Part shown: piece by piece, positions 3,752 to 64,000 of the stretch
Position numbering within the stretch: the first letter of the stretch is position 1
Layout: each line of letters starts with the position of its first letter
Origin: a virus
DNA: 64,000 bases
Direction: 5' to 3' (one strand)
Virus record (IMG/VR): IMGVR_UViG_3300027852_000001
Coordinates: 1-64,000 of that record
Translations under genes and position numbers: made by a program
The notes under the pieces: model-generated
The model's input: the letters and a program-made list of their open reading frames with translations, nothing else
Told to the model about the DNA's origin: nothing
The model's database searches: none

Positions 3752-4697
3752 AAGGGGTCTCCTTAGTTGACGTTTTCTGCTGATCTCCAAAGCTTAAACT
3801 GCTATACTTATGGTAAACATATTCACTGCCAAGTGTATGTAAGTCTGACCAAACTCTTTGACATATGTCGTTTTTATTGAAACTACACATACGACAACTC
3901 CAGCTACGATTTCTTTGTATTAATGTGTCTTTTAGGACGGTGGTCATAAATTTATGCAACATAGCAATAGTTATCACTAAATCTTCTTGGGATAAACTTA
4001 TTGTAATAGGACCACCATCATTAGTATAATAAAATGTTATTATTACATTTTTATATTTTGGATACAAATAACAAACTGCCAAATGATATAATCTTGGCTG
4101 TATTTCATTCATCAAAGAAATTTCATCTATTTCATTTTGTGTATGAAAATTTTGTCTTTTCCCCGTTTTCCAATCAATTATCTCAATAGTGTCTTCGTCT
4201 ATTTGTCTAACAAAATCAATAAAACCACGTACAGCAAATTGATGTGGATTTTTATCAGAATCATAACACGTCCATTCATCACCTGGCATTGCTATTGAAA
4301 ACCATTGCTCTGAATCTATAACATCGATTAAATACGGATTATAATATTTGTCTTCAAGGATAGATTCTAGTGCTATTCTACATTTTTTAAAATCTGCAGC
4401 TTCCTTAAAATCTCCAGTATTTTTGTCTATTCTGGTAGTAGTTTTTCTTATTTCTACTTCTGGATTATCAGCAACATGTTCATCCCACGATCTATGTAAA
4501 AGCCACATTGGGTCCACATTTGTTTTACCTCGTTTTTTTAATTTTATCATCCATTCAAAAACTTGGTGAACAATTGTCCCCTGTAATGCTGCTTTACCAG
4601 ATTTCGATTTCATCTGTAATATATAATTCATGAAATACGAAAACTGGCAATGATTGTATGTTCCTATTGAACTGGCACTACATTTAACTATTTTCAT
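3744..4697 (-). CDS. PD-(D/E)XK nuclease, Cas4/RecB-like with Fe-S cysteines (copy 1)
   Basis: N-terminal Cys (KCSAS), core GFIDFV...IEIIDWKTGK, C-terminal CRMCSFNKNDIC. Start moved to the ATG at 4697 (MKIVKC), which overlaps the upstream stop by 14 nt. Confidence 0.7.
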   Translation of the reverse strand: MKIVKCSASSIGTYNHCQFSYFMNYILQMKSKSGKAALQGTIVHQVFEWMIKLKKRGKTNVDPMWLLHRSWDEHVADNPEVEIRKTTTRIDKNTGDFKEAADFKKCRIALESILEDKYYNPYLIDVIDSEQWFSIAMPGDEWTCYDSDKNPHQFAVRGFIDFVRQIDEDTIEIIDWKTGKRQNFHTQNEIDEISLMNEIQPRLYHLAVCYLYPKYKNVIITFYYTNDGGPITISLSQEDLVITIAMLHKFMTTVLKDTLIQRNRSWSCRMCSFNKNDICQRVWSDLHTLGSEYVYHKYSSLSFGDQQKTSTKETPCV

Positions 4698-5061
4698 TAT
4701 TTCTTCTACCTGTTTGCCAATTAAAGCGATCATCCAAATCTGTTCTGCCTGTTTCCTGATAATGAACGATACACATAACATTAAAAATTATGGCAGATGC
4801 ATGATCTTCATCCTTATCTCCAGCGACAAACTGAAATACGTGTCTCATTAAACTAGCTATACACCTAGATACTGGAATCCCTTTTGTCCAATTGTGTTCA
4901 TCATACTTCTCCGCACCTCTAGCGTAGTGAATAGCTAGTCTTTTCAATGCTGTTGGTGGTATTAGATCGAATCTAGGCTTACCATCCTCAGTATCTCTAA
5001 CAGCCCCTGTATTAAAATTTTGTCTCTTACCAGAATCTTTGACTTCAAAATCATCAGGCAT
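4684..5061 (-). CDS. dATP/dGTP pyrophosphohydrolase-domain protein (DUF5664 / MazZ-like)
   Basis: GKPRFDLIPPTALKRLAIHYARGAEKYDEHNWTKG...ASLMRHVFQF..GDKDEDHASAI matches the family signature as I recall it (GKPR.DLIPP..L..L......GA.KY...NW.KG). Confidence 0.5.
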   Translation of the reverse strand: MPDDFEVKDSGKRQNFNTGAVRDTEDGKPRFDLIPPTALKRLAIHYARGAEKYDEHNWTKGIPVSRCIASLMRHVFQFVAGDKDEDHASAIIFNVMCIVHYQETGRTDLDDRFNWQTGRRNNENS

Positions 5062-5062
5062 T

Positions 5063-6232
5063 TTAGTTCTCCAAAATATAATTATCAGAAAACATTGTTG
5101 TTTTCGATGTTTTCTCTAAAATAGGACCAAGTTTTTTTGTTATGTCTTCTGGAATCATATCACCAATATCATTTGCGGTATCTGGCGTGACACAGAATAC
5201 TCTAAAATAGTAATTAAGTTCTTTTTTTAATCTATCCATAGCATCATTACCAGCGGCGTCATTATCAAACATACATATTACCGTCAATGCTCCTGAATTT
5301 TGTAGTATCAATCTCTGTTGTCTGGAGATACTTACTCCAAGTAATGCTACGCTATTCTTAATACCAGCGTTCTCACAGGCCCAAACATCACCCGGACCTT
5401 CACACAATATAACCGTACCAGTCTTGCTGATATACGGCTTAGCATACCAAACATTATATAGACACGACTCACTACTCAATCCCTTTGAGTGTTTCCATTT
5501 AGTGTAAAGTCCTGCATATTTCTTTTCTGGACATGTTTGTCTTTGTGGATGGTGATACATTCCACATTTATCACATTTGTCATATATACTCCTACCCGAC
5601 CAACCGACTACATATCTTCCTGTAGAATCAAGTATTGGGAAAAATGCTCTTTGATACATTGGCTTATTACGTGTATCACAAAATGAAATATGGTATTTAG
5701 CTATGATATCTTGGCTTACCCCTCTATTTGGATAATATACTTGATCTGGGTTTAACATCCCGACAACAGTTGCCAATGGAGTTCCTTTTTGTTTTGATGA
5801 AGATTGTTTTTTTCTGTGGTTCTTTATTATCTTAGCAATCTCTACATCCTGTGCAGTTTCTTCCCCACCATCACAGTCGTCCAACCCAAGAACCTTAGCA
5901 ACAAAACTTACTGATTGTATAAAACTCCAATCTTTTTCTGTCTTGCGACTCATTGTCCCACGTACTAGTCCAAAAATACTATTTGATGGTCCGGTTATTG
6001 ATGAATTATGACACCCTCTTGTTTTACATTGCCAGTGATTTGAGTTTATTGCCCAAAACATTGCTCTATCATTGTTTCCACCATGCACTGGACATGCGGC
6101 TTGCAAATAATCTCGTCTTTCTGTAAATTCTATTCCCATTGCGTCAAGAACTTCAGCTACTCGCTCACACGCGCGTGCTTGTATAAAATCAACATTTAAT
6201 TTCTTAAACTGTTTCATTTGTTTTATTTTCAA
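5063..6232 (-). CDS. dnaG: DNA primase (DnaG-like zinc finger plus TOPRIM)
   Basis: Zinc finger CPVHGGNNDRAMFW...WQCKTRGCH. TOPRIM motifs ILCEGPGDVWA and MFDNDAAGNDA. Confidence 0.85.
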   Translation of the reverse strand: MKIKQMKQFKKLNVDFIQARACERVAEVLDAMGIEFTERRDYLQAACPVHGGNNDRAMFWAINSNHWQCKTRGCHNSSITGPSNSIFGLVRGTMSRKTEKDWSFIQSVSFVAKVLGLDDCDGGEETAQDVEIAKIIKNHRKKQSSSKQKGTPLATVVGMLNPDQVYYPNRGVSQDIIAKYHISFCDTRNKPMYQRAFFPILDSTGRYVVGWSGRSIYDKCDKCGMYHHPQRQTCPEKKYAGLYTKWKHSKGLSSESCLYNVWYAKPYISKTGTVILCEGPGDVWACENAGIKNSVALLGVSISRQQRLILQNSGALTVICMFDNDAAGNDAMDRLKKELNYYFRVFCVTPDTANDIGDMIPEDITKKLGPILEKTSKTTMFSDNYILEN

Positions 6233-7649
6233 ACGATTCTTTTGTTATTAAAGAGAATGGTTGCCCTTCTATCAGTTTGCCTATCGATAACATGTTGTGT
6301 ACATTAATATAATCTCCACCGTCCATTCCTGGACCATATCTTGTGTCTGTCACTATTAGTTTTTTTGTTCCATTACATGGTGGATCTTCGTTTAGTTCTG
6401 ATTGAGTCTTTGCTTTTAATATGGAAAAATTAGAACACAACCAAACAATTCTATCTGAACCAGAAACAACCTCAGCTCTTTCTTTGTCAACTCCATCTCG
6501 ATTTAATTGAACTGTTGCTAATATTGGTAATTTAAACTTAGTTGCAAAGTTGTGTAATGATGTAACCAAAAAACCCAACAATTGATATTCCTGTAATGTA
6601 TTACCTTTAAATCCACCTTCATCCATAAGTTTTATATAATCATATACTATCAAACATGGATTCGCTCCTCCACTATTATTAAATCCAACAGTTTTGGACA
6701 ACCAACGTCTTGCTATAGAAATGATAGCACTTGGAGCTAATCCTGCTACGGAAAAATGGTCTATTGATAGATTTTCAACTTTTTCTTTGCATCCCCATAC
6801 TGCTTCGTGTTCTTGGTGGCTTTCTCTAAAACTTCCGGTCTCTATGTGATTTAATTCAACACCAGAGACTATAGATGCAAGACGATGAAGCTGTGCATCA
6901 CTTGTCAATTCTGTATCTAGATAAAGAACTGGTATTCCGTTTTCTGCAACATTTTTCGCAACATTCAAACAGAAGAATGATTTTCCTTGTTTAGGTCTTG
7001 CTCCAACGACATTAACTGTTGCTGGTCTCAACCCACCACCTATTGCCATATCCCAGTAATTAAATCCGGTTGGTAATCCTATTATTTCCTGTGGAGATTC
7101 CTCTACTGCTTTCATGGTCGATTCATATTTTTTACCGAGTGATACGACACCATTACCCTGTGCCGTAGTACTTCCTGTAAAATCAAAGATAGGTTCTTCT
7201 ATCATACCTATTATTTCATCAACCTGTTCTGTCCCTGTAATCCCCTTCAAATTTGTACACACATTGTTTGCTGCGATAAATGCTTTTCTTGCTAGGGATA
7301 ATTTATATATAGCCGCAACCATAGCCATTACATTATCTTGGGATATACTCTTTTCATCTACTATATCTTCTAGGTAGTTAGTATTTTTTCCTCCACTTGT
7401 AAAATTATCATAACCCAACATTTTTGCAGATGCTTGTATACTTGGGATGTCGAATGTTTTTGCATTATCGGAATGAACCATGTGCGATAAAATATGGAAA
7501 AGTTCTTGATTAAATGTCCAATAAAAATCCGTAGAAGATAATATATCCTCGATATCAAAAAAACAGTCAGCACCATATGTCGTAATTCCAGACATAATTG
7601 CTCGTTCCATCCCAGAGTCTTGTAAAATAGCATTTGATTTATTGGCCAT
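6204..7649 (-). CDS. dnaB: replicative DNA helicase (DnaB family)
   Basis: GLPTGFNYWDMAIGGGLRP, Walker A GARPKQGKS, LIVYDYIKLM, VQLNR motifs. 481 aa. Confidence 0.9.
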   Translation of the reverse strand: MANKSNAILQDSGMERAIMSGITTYGADCFFDIEDILSSTDFYWTFNQELFHILSHMVHSDNAKTFDIPSIQASAKMLGYDNFTSGGKNTNYLEDIVDEKSISQDNVMAMVAAIYKLSLARKAFIAANNVCTNLKGITGTEQVDEIIGMIEEPIFDFTGSTTAQGNGVVSLGKKYESTMKAVEESPQEIIGLPTGFNYWDMAIGGGLRPATVNVVGARPKQGKSFFCLNVAKNVAENGIPVLYLDTELTSDAQLHRLASIVSGVELNHIETGSFRESHQEHEAVWGCKEKVENLSIDHFSVAGLAPSAIISIARRWLSKTVGFNNSGGANPCLIVYDYIKLMDEGGFKGNTLQEYQLLGFLVTSLHNFATKFKLPILATVQLNRDGVDKERAEVVSGSDRIVWLCSNFSILKAKTQSELNEDPPCNGTKKLIVTDTRYGPGMDGGDYINVHNMLSIGKLIEGQPFSLITKESFENKTNETV

Positions 7650-8097
7650 TAACCCTGCCTTTTGTTAATGAAAGACATTTATCACATTTTTGTCCAATTT
7701 GTTCTCCACCGGGTACTGGAGACATAAACAAATCTTCGCACTCACTACATGATACCTCATATTGTAAATTTGTGTTTCTTGTTGTCTTTCTTTTTCTTGT
7801 TTTTTTTGCTATTTCTATATTTCTCTTTACTTCTTTTGGATCTGGTTCTTCTGTTATTAGGTGTGATGTATCTAGTGCTTTAGTTTCTTCTTTCTTTGTT
7901 TTAGTGGTTTTTTTTGTATTTTTTTGTGGTGTTTCTGTAATATCACCTAATATTTTTCGTATATCACTTACTATTGTTTCAGCTTTACTTTTCTGTTGTG
8001 GTTCTAGCTTTTCTCCAGTCATGGTTTCATAACCACCACAAACATCCGACCAATTTCCTTTTAATATTCCGTTTCTTATCTTCTCTAGTGGCGTCAT
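7639..8097 (-). CDS. hypothetical Lys/Glu-rich protein with C-terminal zinc ribbon
   Basis: 152-aa ORF with an 11-nt overlap with dnaB. Contains CSECEDLF...CDKC. Confidence 0.5.
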   Translation of the reverse strand: MTPLEKIRNGILKGNWSDVCGGYETMTGEKLEPQQKSKAETIVSDIRKILGDITETPQKNTKKTTKTKKEETKALDTSHLITEEPDPKEVKRNIEIAKKTRKRKTTRNTNLQYEVSCSECEDLFMSPVPGGEQIGQKCDKCLSLTKGRVNGQ

Positions 8098-60276: not shown

Positions 60277-60636
60277 TTAACTACGTCCCCTGTCGATGTC
60301 TCTCTGAATCTCATCTATTGACTTAGAACAGTCATCGTAGTAGATACTTCGTAGCCAGATTTCCGCTGCTTCTCTCTTCTCGGGAGAACTGACCAAATAC
60401 TCCATGGCTTCAATTGCTGCTTCAAACATAGTCTCCGGGGTTATTCCACCACAGGTCATTTCCTTCACATCTTCAATATCATCTACGTGGACGTTTTGAA
60501 GATTTTCTACTCGAAAAGGAATATTATCAGCATCCGACTGATTCCATAGATTGCGGTTCCATGGATTGTTGAGAAGAGTTTGGTTGGTTTCCAGAATTCC
60601 TTCGATGACTAGTCGCACTCTAAATCTTCGTCCCAT
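60277..60636 (-). CDS. hypothetical protein, paralogue family B
   Basis: ITPETMFEAAIEAMEY...AAEIWL...DEIQRD. Confidence 0.5.
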   Translation of the reverse strand: MGRRFRVRLVIEGILETNQTLLNNPWNRNLWNQSDADNIPFRVENLQNVHVDDIEDVKEMTCGGITPETMFEAAIEAMEYLVSSPEKREAAEIWLRSIYYDDCSKSIDEIQRDIDRGRS

Positions 60637-60648
60637 CTTTTGTCTCCT

Positions 60649-60870
60649 TTATCCGTTTGGGTAATTTTGATTAAGCCAGGTAAGGTTATTTTTAACCCAT
60701 TTTGTTGCATATTCACCTAGACGAATTCCATCTGCTGTACTAAAAAACCATGTTTGTGATTCTTTCCTGTACTCTAAAATGCCAACCATGATTCGTTCAG
60801 AATCTGATGTAATCATACAACTAAATGGATATCCGTCCATCTCAACTACTGAATCTATATACAAAATCAT
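60649..60870 (-). CDS. hypothetical protein, paralogue family C
   Basis: 73 aa and first gene downstream of the repeat-rich intergenic region. Confidence 0.45.
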   Translation of the reverse strand: MILYIDSVVEMDGYPFSCMITSDSERIMVGILEYRKESQTWFFSTADGIRLGEYATKWVKNNLTWLNQNYPNG

Positions 60871-60977
60871 TGTTTTTACCCCCTTAAGGGACTATACTGT
60901 AGTTTGAGGTATTACACGGCGCTAGCTATTGTTGGGTACAAAATTTATCGTTGTTTTTTGTAGGTTGCGCTGTGTTA

Positions 60978-61012
60978 CCCACTTACTCCCACCATCTCCC
61001 ACTACGACCCAC
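60978..61012. repeat. four CCCAC motifs at exact 10-bp spacing
   Basis: CCCAC at 60978, 60988, 60998 and 61008 (taCCCACttactCCCACcatctCCCACtacgaCCCACta). Confidence 0.8.
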
Positions 61013-61212
61013 TAATAGGTACAGAATCGTATATAGGAAGTAAACTGGCTATGGTGAGGTGCTGGACTTGCAGTAGCTTGACTATTAACCATGTTGTGCC
61101 GGAATCGTTGATATTGATAGTAATAATGCGGTTTTTGCACGACACACAAGGTAGGTTAGATTATGTCTTTACTACAACAATTAACCCCTAACAGTATACA
61201 CAGATACCAACA

Positions 61213-61230
61213 GGAGAGGGGAGGGGGCGG
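61213..61230 (+). other. G-tract (GGAGAGGGGAGGGGGCGG)
   Basis: Read directly. An unusual G-run for this AT-rich genome. Confidence 0.6.
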
Positions 61231-61296
61231 ATCTTGTAGTTTTTTTTGTACCTGAAGCCCACACACACCAAGACTACTACAAAAAACCCCGAAACC

Positions 61297-61346
61297 TTGT
61301 AGGCGCGCCGGGATTCTTTGTAGGAGCCCATAATATATTTTGTAGG
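61297..61346. repeat. three TTGTAGG direct repeats phased at 21-22 bp (further copies and variants elsewhere in the spacer)
   Basis: TTGTAGG at 61297, 61318 and 61340. Another exact copy at 60958. Variants TTGTAGT at 61234 and TTGTACC at 61246. Inverted CTACAA at about 61173 and 61278. Confidence 0.8.
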
Positions 61347-61354
61347 GGTGATAA

Positions 61355-61726
61355 CTAATCTTCAATACTACCAATTAATGAGCTAAAACACGCCCATTTA
61401 ACGGTTTCTCTTTGTACTTCAGTACATCCCCACTGTACTATCCACACAGGACCATTGTGTTCATCATTTTGTCTCGAATAACAGACTCGTCCTATGAACG
61501 TTGATCCGTCATAATCTTCGAAGACTACTGGAATACTGAATTCGGGATCAGAAACACTTGTTGGAGGTAGTGCATTTGAGATGTGTGTCCACTTTATATT
61601 ATGTTTTTCCACGTTAAAAACCTCATTTTCGATTAGAATAATGCGGAAAGTGTCGACGACTTTTTGCCCTATTCTCCAAACATTTCTATATATTTTGGGG
61701 CACACCAGCAACAAAGTTCTATCCAT
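61355..61726 (-). CDS. hypothetical protein
   Basis: 123-aa ORF. The N-terminal 58 nt overlap the upstream gene, so the start is uncertain. Confidence 0.45.
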   Translation of the reverse strand: MDRTLLLVCPKIYRNVWRIGQKVVDTFRIILIENEVFNVEKHNIKWTHISNALPPTSVSDPEFSIPVVFEDYDGSTFIGRVCYSRQNDEHNGPVWIVQWGCTEVQRETVKWACFSSLIGSIED

Positions 61727-61854
61727 GGGAAATTAACAACATCCCCATCAAGCCTCAACGTCCTGACTACAGATTTTCCACCACAGAGTTCGCATTGCTT
61801 CTCTTTATCATCACCCACTATTCCGTCTTGCCAATGCTCGTGGTTCTCTAACAT
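61669..61854 (-). CDS. zinc-ribbon protein (tandem paralogue 1)
   Basis: CELCGG...RLDGDVV...CCWC...YIEMFGE. Confidence 0.5.
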   Translation of the reverse strand: MLENHEHWQDGIVGDDKEKQCELCGGKSVVRTLRLDGDVVNFPWIELCCWCAPKYIEMFGE

Positions 61855-61857
61855 TAT

Positions 61858-62031
61858 TTACTCCCAGAACAATTCTTGATATCTCCGGTCACACCACTCA
61901 CAGAGATCAATATAAGGCTTATGAACAATATCCCCATCCAACCTCGGCGTATTGACTACGGCTACAGAGCCACAGAATTCACACCTTAGCTCCTTTTTCT
62001 TCTCGTCTTGCGACCCACATTCCTCAACCAT
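61858..62031 (-). CDS. zinc-ribbon protein (tandem paralogue 2; not in the track, 57 aa)
   Basis: Hand translation: MVEECGSQDEKKKELRCEFCGSVAVVNTPRLDGDIVHKPYIDLCEWCDRRYQELFWE. Colinear with 61669..61854. Confidence 0.5.
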   Translation of the reverse strand: MVEECGSQDEKKKELRCEFCGSVAVVNTPRLDGDIVHKPYIDLCEWCDRRYQELFWE

Positions 62032-62080
62032 TTTGTTCTCCTACAAAAAAGATGATTATGTAAATCTTGTACTACAAACA

Positions 62081-62144
62081 ATGGCTGACGGGATTCGAAC
62101 CCGTACCTTCCTCCGTGATATGCGCCTATTTACAACACAGCCAT
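62081..62144 (-). ncRNA. truncated tRNA-like minihelix (64 nt: acceptor plus T-arm, no D/anticodon arms found)
   Basis: AUGGCUG ... ACGGG-UUCGAAU-CCCGU-CAGCCAU. Only 33 nt lie between the acceptor 5' strand and the T-arm. Confidence 0.4.
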
Positions 62145-62305
62145 TCTCTTCCCATTAAAAATTTATATATTATATAGATAATTCAGGAGCGCACATACTT
62201 GAGTATGTACCACTCCCTACTAGCCGGGTGGACTTGAATGCATTTGCCCCTCTTTCTATATAGTTTGGTGCCTATGAAATAACGTAATTTGTTGTTTTAA
62301 AGATA

Positions 62306-62401
62306 GTCAGAAACCCCACCGAAACTGACATCCTGGAAATACGTAATCCGCAATGTACTCCAGGTTCCCGCGATACAACATCTAAATCGCACGCCTCGCG
62401 G
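62306..62401 (-). ncRNA. three consecutive hairpins in a non-coding spacer
   Basis: Stems 62368-73/62396-401 (CCGCGA/UCGCGG), 62332-37/62359-64 (CCUGGA/UCCAGG) and 62306-10/62325-29 (GUCAG/CUGAC). Confidence 0.4.
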
Positions 62402-62409
62402 ATGATCAA

Positions 62410-62652
62410 TTATTCTTCTAGACTCTCGATCTGACCACTTCTATTCAGGGTACAGTTGAGGGTTAGTGGTAGATTTTTGTATCTGACGAATATTCCTTCA
62501 TCATCAAATCTACCAATAATGACTTCTCTTTCTCTTTCACCGTCCCAATAGGTAGCAATAATCACTACCCCACAGGGTACGTTTCTCAGTTTCAATTTGA
62601 TGTGACCAAGTGGTCTTTCAGTATCAACTTCAAATTTCATAGTTTTCCCCAT
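62410..62652 (-). CDS. hypothetical protein
   Basis: 80-aa ORF with locally AT-rich composition like the other genes. It is flanked by GC-enriched non-coding sequence. Confidence 0.45.
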   Translation of the reverse strand: MGKTMKFEVDTERPLGHIKLKLRNVPCGVVIIATYWDGEREREVIIGRFDDEGIFVRYKNLPLTLNCTLNRSGQIESLEE

Positions 62653-64000
62653 AGTAAAAGTAGCCTATTGTCCCACAATCTACCACCGTAGCGCGGTTCG
62701 TTGCATTATTTACACCGGTAAAAGACTATATCGCCTACCAGACCGTTGTCTGTCCTAAGTGCTTCCCCCAATCTTTCGGAGTTCAAGCCACATCTTGCAA
62801 CTAACACTGCGTGTGTGACTTGCATTTCTACCTGTCTCTGGTTAGTACTAGACACTAGAATAGATTGCGGAACAATAGGTTACTCATCACAGAATAATAG
62901 AGAGTACATGCAGGGATGCCCGGACTCGAACCGGGACAATCGAGAATCAGTCGACGACCTGTTGTCTCATTTATAGGCTGTTACAGGGTTGATTAAGTCC
63001 TGTCATTTATCTAATATCACCATTTGCACCCGAGACTTCAGTCTGACGTGGTTTTTACGCCAATTAGGCTGACCACCGCGCTGCCTGTTGCGCCACACCC
63101 CTGCACATACTCTCACCAAACGAAAAAAGGGACACAGACTACTTTGCATCTCTTAACCAAGCGCGCCCGGACTTGCACCGGGGTCTTTCGGACTATTGGC
63201 TGCAATAGCCTTTGTCAAATGTTTTCCTTGTTAAACTACGCACTTGCACCGAATCCCCACCGAATCGGTAACGGCTACCTACAACCGAATAAGGGTTGCG
63301 ATAGTTTCCCGCCCCACCATGGAGGCACTACACTATTGATTTGTTAGATAATGCCCGTGACTGTCGAAGTCTGGCAGACTGCGCCACGGACAGTTTCGTG
63401 TATCTTTATTTTCTACAGGCTTTTTCTAATTTACCTGCCAGGACATAACGTGAGACGGTATCGCCAGACGACAAAAGAACCCGTTTATTCGCGCCACATC
63501 CTGAGCCACGCCCGTTCAGCGTACCATCCGACACGTAACTTGTAAAGTTAAACGTCAGACGAATCCAAACAATTATTGGAATTGTCTACTATCCAATTCG
63601 GTCAGACCTTTATATCCTAGTCGATACTCGGACCCAGTGGTTAGAAAAGGAATTCCAGCAGACTGTTCTTCAAGAATTGCTTCAAGGATTGCCTATCTGC
63701 GTGACATTGCGTTCGTGGACCTTGCGGTTGGTATCCAAACTTTACCGTTGACTAGCCTTTTTCTTCCTTGGTACGACTTTCGCTCTCCCCTCCACTATCG
63801 GGCGACTAGGCCGTCATTTAGCTTTGGTGGCTAGTATCGTACATAGACTCCGACTAATAGACTTAGGACGGACCCCTACCACGAACGTAGACCCCTTTAT
63901 CGGGCTTCAGACTGATTGCTCGACTACTAGACCCCATTGGATTATGAGACCATTCGCCTACTAAATCAACCCTGACGGTTTACCGATGACTAATCGGACC
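62653..64000 (-). ncRNA. ORF-poor, GC-enriched region; candidate large structured RNA(s). Strand inferred from tRNA-like modules; extends past the window edge
   Basis: No minus-strand ORF of 60 aa or more, and only odd-composition plus-strand ORFs. About 48% GC in line 63841-63900 versus 30% in line 1-60 (hand counts). Contains multiple helices, T-loop-like motifs and short direct repeats. Confidence 0.45.
62904..63110 (-). ncRNA. expanded tRNA-like module closed by a 15-bp helix
   Basis: 63110-63096 pairs with 62918-62904 (12 WC plus 3 GU). Inside are acceptor AGGGGUG/CAUCCCU, D-arm GCGC-AACAGGCA-GCGC, stem GUGGU/ACCAC with a 19-nt loop, about 113 nt of extra sequence, and T-arm CCCGG-UUCGAGU-CCGGG. 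Confidence 0.5.

Follow-up and report, generated by a model that had tools for sequence, protein, structure and literature searches.

Very large and intricate non-coding RNAs form a short list in bacteria and their phages, and we know of only a handful that reach such size and intricacy (GOLLD, ROOL, OLE, HEARO and raiA). GOLLD and ROOL have recently been found to form RNA cages, and the question of what such RNAs do is now a prominent one. In GOLLD and OLE, covarying palindromes in hairpin loops are a mark of self-assembly. ROOL, at ~580 nucleotides (nt), is shorter than the ~850-890-nt RNA described here, and OLE (RF01071), of about 600 nt, is a cellular RNA found in Bacillota, with its partner-protein genes adjoining the OLE RNA gene. 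The OLE ribonucleoprotein complex has been described (PMC12054373), and GOLLD (RF01998) is a many-helix RNA of more than 800 nt from phages and prophages, usually found beside tRNA genes and able to embed a tRNA, in which the 3′ region is conserved and the 5′ region variable (PMC12286853). Here we compare these systems with a stretch poor in open reading frames (ORFs), positions 62040-64000, within a 64,000-nt stretch of viral DNA (IMG/VR record IMGVR_UViG_3300027852_000001, positions 1 to 64,000; hereafter the window). The ORF-poor stretch is a cluster of conserved, co-oriented, structured non-coding RNAs set within an array of small genes, about 4 kb downstream of a strand switch, and its largest member is a structured RNA which, judging from model searches, belongs to no described family.

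The window could be placed in a circularly assembled contig, to which exact-protein matches of its 148-, 57- and 61-aa ORFs led; for the 80- and 123-aa ORFs no exact protein is on file. A JGI contig of 168,033 base pairs (bp; 3300002180|JGI24724J26744_10000027) contains sequence identical to the window, and its ends overlap by 70 bp, giving a circular assembly of 168,033 bp, so that the region can be read past the window edge. Positions beyond that edge are given below as window equivalents or in the numbering of locus L002, the reverse complement of the right end of the window together with the 8 kb beyond it (L002 position = 72032-p for window position p). The contig belongs to a large, uncultured tailed phage, whose genome of ~168 kb encodes a DNA polymerase, ribonucleotide reductase, DnaB-like helicase, primase and Rnl1-like RNA ligase as well as five ordinary tRNAs. 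The phage has no cultured relative, since nothing in GenBank phages is more than about 35% identical to its polymerase; a BLAST search of 62000-64000 against GenBank phages gave no match, and the tRNAs were the only parts of the remaining window to match. A preliminary description of the stretch, made from its letters alone, had placed it at the upstream end of the gene array. This placement did not hold, as about nine more co-oriented small genes lie past the window edge, among them a conserved gene for a protein of 104-105 amino acids (aa), and the strand switch lies about 4 kb beyond the edge in L002. The rightward extension that the preliminary description had called for also places the 5′ ~138 nt of the large RNA past the edge.

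Neither an exact 31-mer nor two small neighbouring proteins, searched in IMG/VR, found a relative, and relatives were obtained by two independent routes, the DNA motif RTTATCGGAC and the neighbouring 104-105-aa protein. BLAST of L002 against motif-bearing IMG/VR contigs gave about a dozen syntenic relatives, and a metagenome search with an alignment of the 105-aa protein gave 41 further loci. Sediment or saline-lake samples are the source of L128-L173. A three-block DNA pattern for the RNA regained eight known members in IMG/VR; its five other matches, L123-L127, were false positives, ruled out by alignment and tblastn. The clade of this phage comprises the phage itself, L130, L128/L129 and L095. 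The large RNA and the gene linked to it comprise the following features.

63248..64000, minus strand: large multi-domain structured RNA, 3′ ~750 nt (profile, RNAalifold and covariation tests)
63326..63522, minus strand: conserved 3′ domain of the large RNA (covariance model R1)
63700-63705 with 63505-63510, minus strand: long-range helix of the large RNA, GUCACG/CGUGGC (helix 1 of the 3′-domain alignment, 100% paired)
64155-64472 (window equivalent, outside the window; L002 7560-7877), gene strand: conserved 104-105-aa gene (tblastn)

The large RNA is about 850-890 nt long. Its 5′ end lies at about window-equivalent position 64138, ~20 nt past the stop codon of the 105-aa gene, and its 3′ end is a hairpin at 63248-63269 with the loop GGUGGGG. 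An nhmmer profile matched 880-1000 nt in about 45 viral or metagenomic loci, and the ORF-poor block 3′ of the protein gene is 60-84% identical in nucleotide sequence among relatives. The consensus fold of 16 full-length main-clade sequences (RNAalifold) contains about 43 helices, nearly all of them with several covarying pairs and 80-100% canonical. The preliminary description had proposed a test for covariation among homologous phage regions, and in the large RNA this signal is strong. The 3′-domain alignment, of 20 sequences with this phage among them, has 36 pairs; these are 93.0% paired, whereas sliding the partners gives 29-40%, and none of 500 shuffles reaches the observed value; double-change cells number 152, against 12-29 in the slid controls. 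The middle domain (26 sequences) gives much the same picture, with 46 pairs that are 93.2% paired against 35-43%, none of 500 shuffles reaching this value, and 120 double-change cells against 22-41. Within the clade of this phage, 20 of 119 pairs in four sequences are compensatory. A CUGUC/GACAG helix already drawn in the preliminary description is helix 6 of the 3′-domain test.

This block is a structured non-coding RNA and not a coding region. Column variability by position modulo 3 is even across it (0.32/0.34/0.35), as against 0.23/0.21/0.52 in the adjacent gene, and with no 3-nt periodicity a coding role was ruled out. On the gene strand, G-U cells outnumber A-C cells (72 to 17 and 223 to 25), from which it follows that the RNA is read from the gene strand, the minus strand of the window. 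A well-conserved part is the 3′ domain at 63326-63522, with the stretches GCUGAACG, AAUAAAC and GAAACUGUCC, including a covarying GAAAC-YR-UCC / GGR-YR helix. R1, a covariance model of this subdomain for which 19 main-clade sequences were used and none from the clade of this phage, has its sole match in the window at 63326-63522 (47.1 bits, E=8.4e-11), and it matches 30 other loci, all 30 of which carry the 105-aa gene. The long-range helix encloses a branched domain of ~190 nt (63505-63705), and four of its six pairs show double compensatory change, from GUCGUG/CACGAC in the main clade to GUCACG/CGUGGC in that of this phage, which also retains the 5′ clamp helix together with the 3′ domains of the large RNA.

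In setting, in size and in its conserved 3′ and variable 5′ and middle regions the large RNA resembles GOLLD, being an RNA of more than 800 nt that is phage-encoded and lies beside tRNA or tRNA-like genes. With ROOL it shares a phage or prophage origin, a place near tRNA islands, and a large, ornate structure. These likenesses, and in particular the combination of a phage genome, adjacent tRNA or tRNA-like genes, a length of about 850 nt and a GOLLD-like distribution of conservation, would be explained if the block were a divergent member of either family, as the preliminary description had suggested in offering GOLLD, ROOL or a new RNA. We regard such membership as extremely improbable. Neither GOLLD (RF01998) nor ROOL (RF03087), nor any other large-RNA family, gave a match even at permissive E-values (E<=10 for window 60500-64000 and L107, E<=1 for L002), and no match to either was found at Rfam 15 gathering scores in 12 related loci; no shared sequence motifs were seen. 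It is therefore the second half of that suggestion, a new RNA, that is borne out by the covariation, by the lack of codon periodicity and by a model match that is independent of the clade, while the GOLLD or ROOL half finds no Rfam 15 match.

Two differences in organisation are also apparent. The RNA described here is always preceded by the 104-aa protein gene and by RTTATCGGAC arrays, unlike GOLLD, to which it has no similarity in sequence or covariance model; and whereas in GOLLD the big RNA hosts a tRNA, here it is a tRNA that hosts a structured insert. ROOL has no known partner protein (PMC12286853), in contrast to the strict linkage of this RNA to a protein gene. The pairing of a large structured RNA with a small dedicated protein is reminiscent of OLE, with the partnership suggested here by gene linkage, but the OLE model gives no match and the linked protein has an unrelated, apparently novel fold.

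The Rfam covariance-model scan proposed in the preliminary description returned one weak tRNA match in the ORF-poor stretch, at 62080-62144, and otherwise no family. Group I and II introns, small ribozymes, tmRNA, RNase P and YrlA had no Rfam match in the window, the extended locus or the relatives. Stretches resembling GGAAGUCCG and UUAUCGGUC had raised the idea of a bacterial RNase P RNA; these pair locally, with no long-range P4 (CR-I/CR-V), and RF00010 and RF00011 gave no match at E<=10 in L107 or E<=1 in L002. YrlA (RF02553) was likewise rejected, its best score of 19.5 bits, against a gathering score of 69, overlapping the true tRNA-Gly of L107, with none in the window. We found no prior description of this RNA in the literature, and the IMG/VR catalogue of candidate structured RNAs, with a mean of 67 nt per candidate, would hold fragments of it at most.

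The protein gene lies directly 5′ of the large RNA in every relative that has the RNA. Its product has 247 homologues in the protein database, all unnamed, and none among 185,579 reference genomes; no Pfam or PHROG family contains it. The predicted structure is confident (pLDDT 88.7) and all-alpha, and the model has no fold match in the PDB or BFVD, so that the protein is predicted to adopt a novel all-alpha fold. Of the sigma-70-like promoter matches in the region, the best (TTGACC-17-TATAGT, L002 7304-7332) is found 230 nt upstream of the gene, and scans of the interval between the gene and the large RNA revealed neither a terminator nor a promoter.

The preliminary description had raised the prospect of one or more giant RNAs across the stretch. 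The 1.9 kb proves instead to be a row of separate structured modules and one ORF, rather than one giant RNA, in the 5′ to 3′ order large RNA, tRNA-derived RNAs and an RNA of ~225 nt, with a module of three hairpins ending the cluster in this phage and its two closest relatives. The single ORF of at least 60 aa on the minus strand, 80 aa at 62410-62652, is as first described, and the plus-strand ORFs of 64-107 aa in 62040-64000 are not conserved. The reported rise in GC content also stands (42% in 62001-63000 and 48% in 63001-64000), although the value of 30% given for coding lines is slightly low, as GC elsewhere in the window is 30-42% and mostly about 35%. The predicted fold energy of the stretch is -436 kcal/mol on the minus strand against -378 kcal/mol on the plus strand, and three segments fold better than dinucleotide shuffles (63332-63705, z = -3.35; 62897-63127, z = -3.0; 62652-62896, z = -4.6). 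Downstream of the large RNA, the row consists of the following.

63159..63245, minus strand: tRNA-like element (read from sequence)
62900..63114, minus strand: interrupted tRNA-Ile(GAU)-derived RNA (RNAalifold, and ARAGORN after in-silico removal of the insert)
62659..62884, minus strand: multi-branched structured RNA of ~225 nt with a 25-bp closing helix (fold z = -4.57)
62410..62652, minus strand: lineage-specific 80-aa ORF (ORF list; the JGI call is a 76-aa version)
62294..62407, minus strand: three-hairpin module, conserved in L129 and L130 (24 pairs, 9 compensatory)
62080..62144, minus strand: tRNA-like element (Rfam tRNA, RF00005, 32.5 bits against a gathering score of 29)

Among these is the RNA at 62900-63114, in which a 121-nt, two-armed structured insert (62956-63076) lies between tRNA nucleotides 26 and 27. 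Pairing of the leader with the trailer lengthens the acceptor stem into a 19-bp closing helix, and the fold also has a D arm, a 5-bp arm with the 7-nt loop CUGAUUC and a canonical T arm. A 15-bp helix proposed earlier from the letters is real and is in fact this longer helix (62900-62918/63096-63114), with compensatory changes in two relatives. The sequence is 93% identical to L130 and 76% to L129, and the consensus fold of this phage with these two relatives (RNAalifold) has 59 pairs with 11 compensatory double changes; the D, anticodon and acceptor stems all covary, and the insert is better conserved in sequence than the tRNA stems. When the insert is removed in silico, ARAGORN finds a clean tRNA-Ile(gat) of 72-73 nt in this phage and in L129, while the intact sequence is called a tRNA by neither ARAGORN nor Rfam. 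A tmRNA was considered and rejected: the pair at position 3/70 is G-C or A-U and not G3:U70, ARAGORN finds no tmRNA, and there is no conserved tag frame, the short frames of the insert ending differently across this phage, L130 and L129. We know of no other bacterial virus in which compensatory changes maintain a tRNA-Ile that carries an insert, here of 121 nt, outside the anticodon loop. We know of no splicing route for such a tRNA insert in bacteria, and the insert may therefore stay in the mature RNA. Archaeal tRNA genes also carry introns at non-canonical positions outside the anticodon loop, and they offer the nearest comparison for this interruption and for the pairing of leader with trailer; unlike in archaea, however, no bulge-helix-bulge is visible at the junctions, and the replication genes of this phage are of bacterial type (DnaB-like helicase, DNA primase family).

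The ~225-nt RNA is about 76% identical in L129, where 8 of its 61 pairs are compensatory and the closing helix is unbroken. The three tandem hairpins noted earlier at 62306-62401 belong to the three-hairpin module and are kept in both L129 and L130, where compensatory change affects 9 of the 24 pairs. The terminal hairpin of this module, at 62306-62329, is terminator-like, with the loop UUUCGGUGGGGUUU (conserved loop UCGGUGGGG) followed by the U-rich UAUCUUU, and is missed by a simple terminator scan because its 14-nt loop exceeds 8 nt. The same hairpin-loop family closes the 3′ end of the large RNA in relatives (e.g., L107, L121 and L118). Across the terminator-like hairpins (62306-62329, 63248-63269 and those of the relatives) the stems covary while the loops hold constant as (U)UYGGUGGGG(U)U, and this constancy suggests recognition by a factor. 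The 80-aa ORF matches no Pfam or PHROG family, and tblastn detected it in none of the loci retrieved, L129 and L130 among them; it has the appearance of an insertion, as the RNA modules that flank it are adjacent in both of these relatives, and it may be a candidate coding sequence for a putative protein.

Three T-arm-like hairpins had been noted in the stretch, and all are present (62088-62108, 62919-62935 and 63166-63183) as parts of tRNA-derived RNAs. One lies in the interrupted tRNA-Ile and the others in the two tRNA-like elements. The element at 63159-63245 combines the acceptor stem AAGUGCG/CGCGCUU with a D arm and with a T-like arm whose loop, UGCAAGU, is non-canonical, and the 8-bp hairpin GGCUAUUG-CAGC-CAAUAGUC, also drawn in the preliminary description, takes the place of the anticodon arm; the element is called by neither ARAGORN nor Rfam. 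The closest relatives, L130 and L129, are without it, which indicates an insertion in this phage. The element at 62080-62144 retains complete acceptor, D and T arms, the T loop being UUCGAAU, and a truncated anticodon arm, with 6 nt against 13 in the model; ARAGORN makes no call here. These aberrant folds bear on the idea that the whole stretch is a decayed tRNA cluster with its spacer, in which the helices would be leftovers or due to chance and none of the RNAs would serve a function. Such decay would fit the presence of three aberrant tRNA-like elements, two of them (63159-63245 and 62080-62144) lacking conservation in the closest relatives, and it would fit the true tRNAs (Gly, Asp, Met, Glu and Ile) that occupy the same slot in relatives, 1-1.4 kb after the protein gene. 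Against decay stand the compensatory changes seen in the large RNA, the interrupted tRNA-Ile, the RNA with the 25-bp stem and the hairpin module, and an insert more conserved in sequence than the tRNA stems around it. For the conserved modules this account is already largely refuted, and for the stretch as a whole we hold it to be very improbable.

Immediately upstream of the RNA lies a dense array of the motif by which the relatives were found. L002 carries RTTATCGGAC 32 times at 4298-7979 (window-equivalent 64053-67734), always on the gene strand, against about 18 loose matches in its remaining 66 kb. In nearly all relatives the sites upstream of the gene are oriented and number 30-67 per 4 kb, with a preferred spacing of 25-26 bp and a second peak at 33-34 bp, and the sites fall both between and inside small conserved ORFs. 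A three-copy pattern has a chance expectation of about 0.05 IMG/VR contigs and was met in more than 119, and arrays are also present in many viral contigs without the RNA. In the literature the motif string was met in primers only. Part of the array, a segment of ~1 kb at L002 6570-7560 (window-equivalent 64472-65462), lies directly 5′ of the 105-aa gene, is ORF-poor and AT-richer, holds 13 copies together with the promoter-like site and is about 60-63% identical in relatives.

Such arrays raise the question of whether the region acts as DNA, for instance as a replication origin, a packaging site or a genome end, its hairpins then being DNA structures or sites bound by proteins. Many relatives have contig ends no more than a few kb away, and the GC content is unlike that of the rest of the genome, both of which would suit this reading. 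The contigs concerned, of 140-180 kb (L035, L036, L095, L097, L118, L121, L132, L136 and L160), break a few kb from the array and RNA region at differing positions, which may reflect strain-level hypervariability or a physical genome end. Nevertheless, the tolerance of G-U but not A-C, and on the gene strand only, speaks for RNA and not for duplex or cruciform DNA; the arrays largely end where the RNA starts; and the RNA block has helix covariation, not repeated sites. On this balance, a role of the region as DNA is highly unlikely.

The main-clade large RNA (e.g., L107 2130-2250) contains two copies of GUCCGAUAA/G, the complement of the array motif. One copy pairs within the RNA with a UUAUCGG(U)C segment, the U being bulged, and the other forms a hairpin that covaries away in some members. 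Pairing between array and RNA through the first GUCCGAUAA hairpin was considered and set aside: the hairpin covaries away in L142 and L146 while the array of L142 is still TATCGGAC, which leaves a simple array-RNA pairing model unsupported; for L146 the upstream sequence available for the comparison of arrays is 477 nt only. A broader idea is that the RNA is the first of a new class of giant phage RNA and that, in contrast to GOLLD and ROOL, it works within a three-part module made up of the 30-60 RTTATCGGAC sites, the 104-aa protein of novel fold and the RNA with its tRNA-derived RNAs. The RNA-protein particle would act on phage DNA or transcripts at the sites, with the interrupted tRNA-Ile representing a new kind of tRNA intron or an exapted tRNA. 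We consider this an outside possibility.

We favour the following account of the locus, which seems to us probable as a whole: a conserved, co-oriented cluster of structured RNAs, including a new family of ~850 nt, that is made as one transcript, processed, and assembled into an RNA-protein particle. The protein gene and the RNAs would be transcribed together, as suggested by the lack of a terminator between gene and RNA and by the promoter-like site 230 nt upstream. Stable RNAs could then be freed by host RNase III, cutting the closing helices of 19 and 25 bp, and by RNase P and RNase Z, cutting at the tRNA-like folds, as in the processing of rRNA and tRNA operons. In rRNA operons, long helices formed by flanking sequences mark the points of RNase III excision. 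The tRNA cluster of phage T4 likewise yields stable non-tRNA species (species 1 and 2, or rnaC and rnaD), which are co-transcribed with the tRNAs and released by host nucleases. The T4 species are only about 120-140 nt long, and processing in the present case is suggested solely by the 19-bp and 25-bp closing helices. In this speculative scheme the large RNA would work as a stable particle. The co-inherited 104-aa protein would most likely bind it, the RNA might assemble with itself as GOLLD and ROOL do, and its role could be in a tRNA- or translation-related takeover or counter-defence step of infection.

A different reading of the same arrangement is that the large block is a cis-acting structured 3′ untranslated region (UTR) or leader, which would stabilise the mRNA of the 105-aa gene or control read-through into the tRNA genes and small genes that follow, and would not be a functional RNA in its own right. 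Its structure begins about 20 nt past the stop codon with no promoter or terminator between, the block ends in a terminator-like hairpin of the family with the conserved loop, and it is strictly linked to the gene, all of which favours this reading. However, ~850 nt with ~43 covarying helices and long-range closures far exceeds what known bacterial UTR elements need, the long flanking stems and tRNA-like folds resemble excision signals, and the block is conserved about as well as the gene itself. A UTR is in our judgement unlikely.

The UTR reading is one of several considerations that weigh against the processed-particle account. The helices used for the pair counts were predicted from the same alignments. 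The 5′ and middle part of the large RNA in the clade of this phage (3-4 sequences) cannot be aligned to the main clade, and the predicted fold of 63702-64138, which covers this part, is no better than shuffles (z = -0.4). In more distant loci with the protein gene (L081, L092, L105 and L161-L168) the R1 model has no match. The two unconserved tRNA-like elements, at 63159-63245 and 62080-62144, may be decaying tRNA genes. The ends, processing and stability of the transcript are predictions from sequence features, and it is synteny that suggests the putative protein-RNA contact, the protein having no recognisable RNA-binding fold.

Two further features lie just 3′ of the cluster. Adjacent minus-strand genes of 61 and 57 aa (61669-61854 and 61858-62031) appear to be paralogues and share a CxxC...CxxC zinc-ribbon pattern; Pfam gives weak zinc-ribbon matches (the 57-aa protein being the one scanned), and homologues of the pair were not found in related loci. 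On the same strand, 61161-61360 consists of repeated CTACAA/TTGTAG units with a G-rich run, GGGGAGGGGGCGG, and it is here that the ends of the contig overlap. About 130 nt of this block are 73% identical to L118, and related blocks follow the large RNA by 1-1.2 kb in L036, L107 and L121. It contains a terminator-like hairpin with the loop GGUUUCGGGG, and its Rfam match to 'mir-938' is a chance one.

An independent family of giant RNAs in the same setting adds a protein-linked example beside GOLLD and ROOL. With a strictly linked protein and an array of sites, the function of giant RNAs becomes experimentally approachable at this locus, and such work would reveal if phages repeatedly turn to giant RNAs next to tRNA genes.

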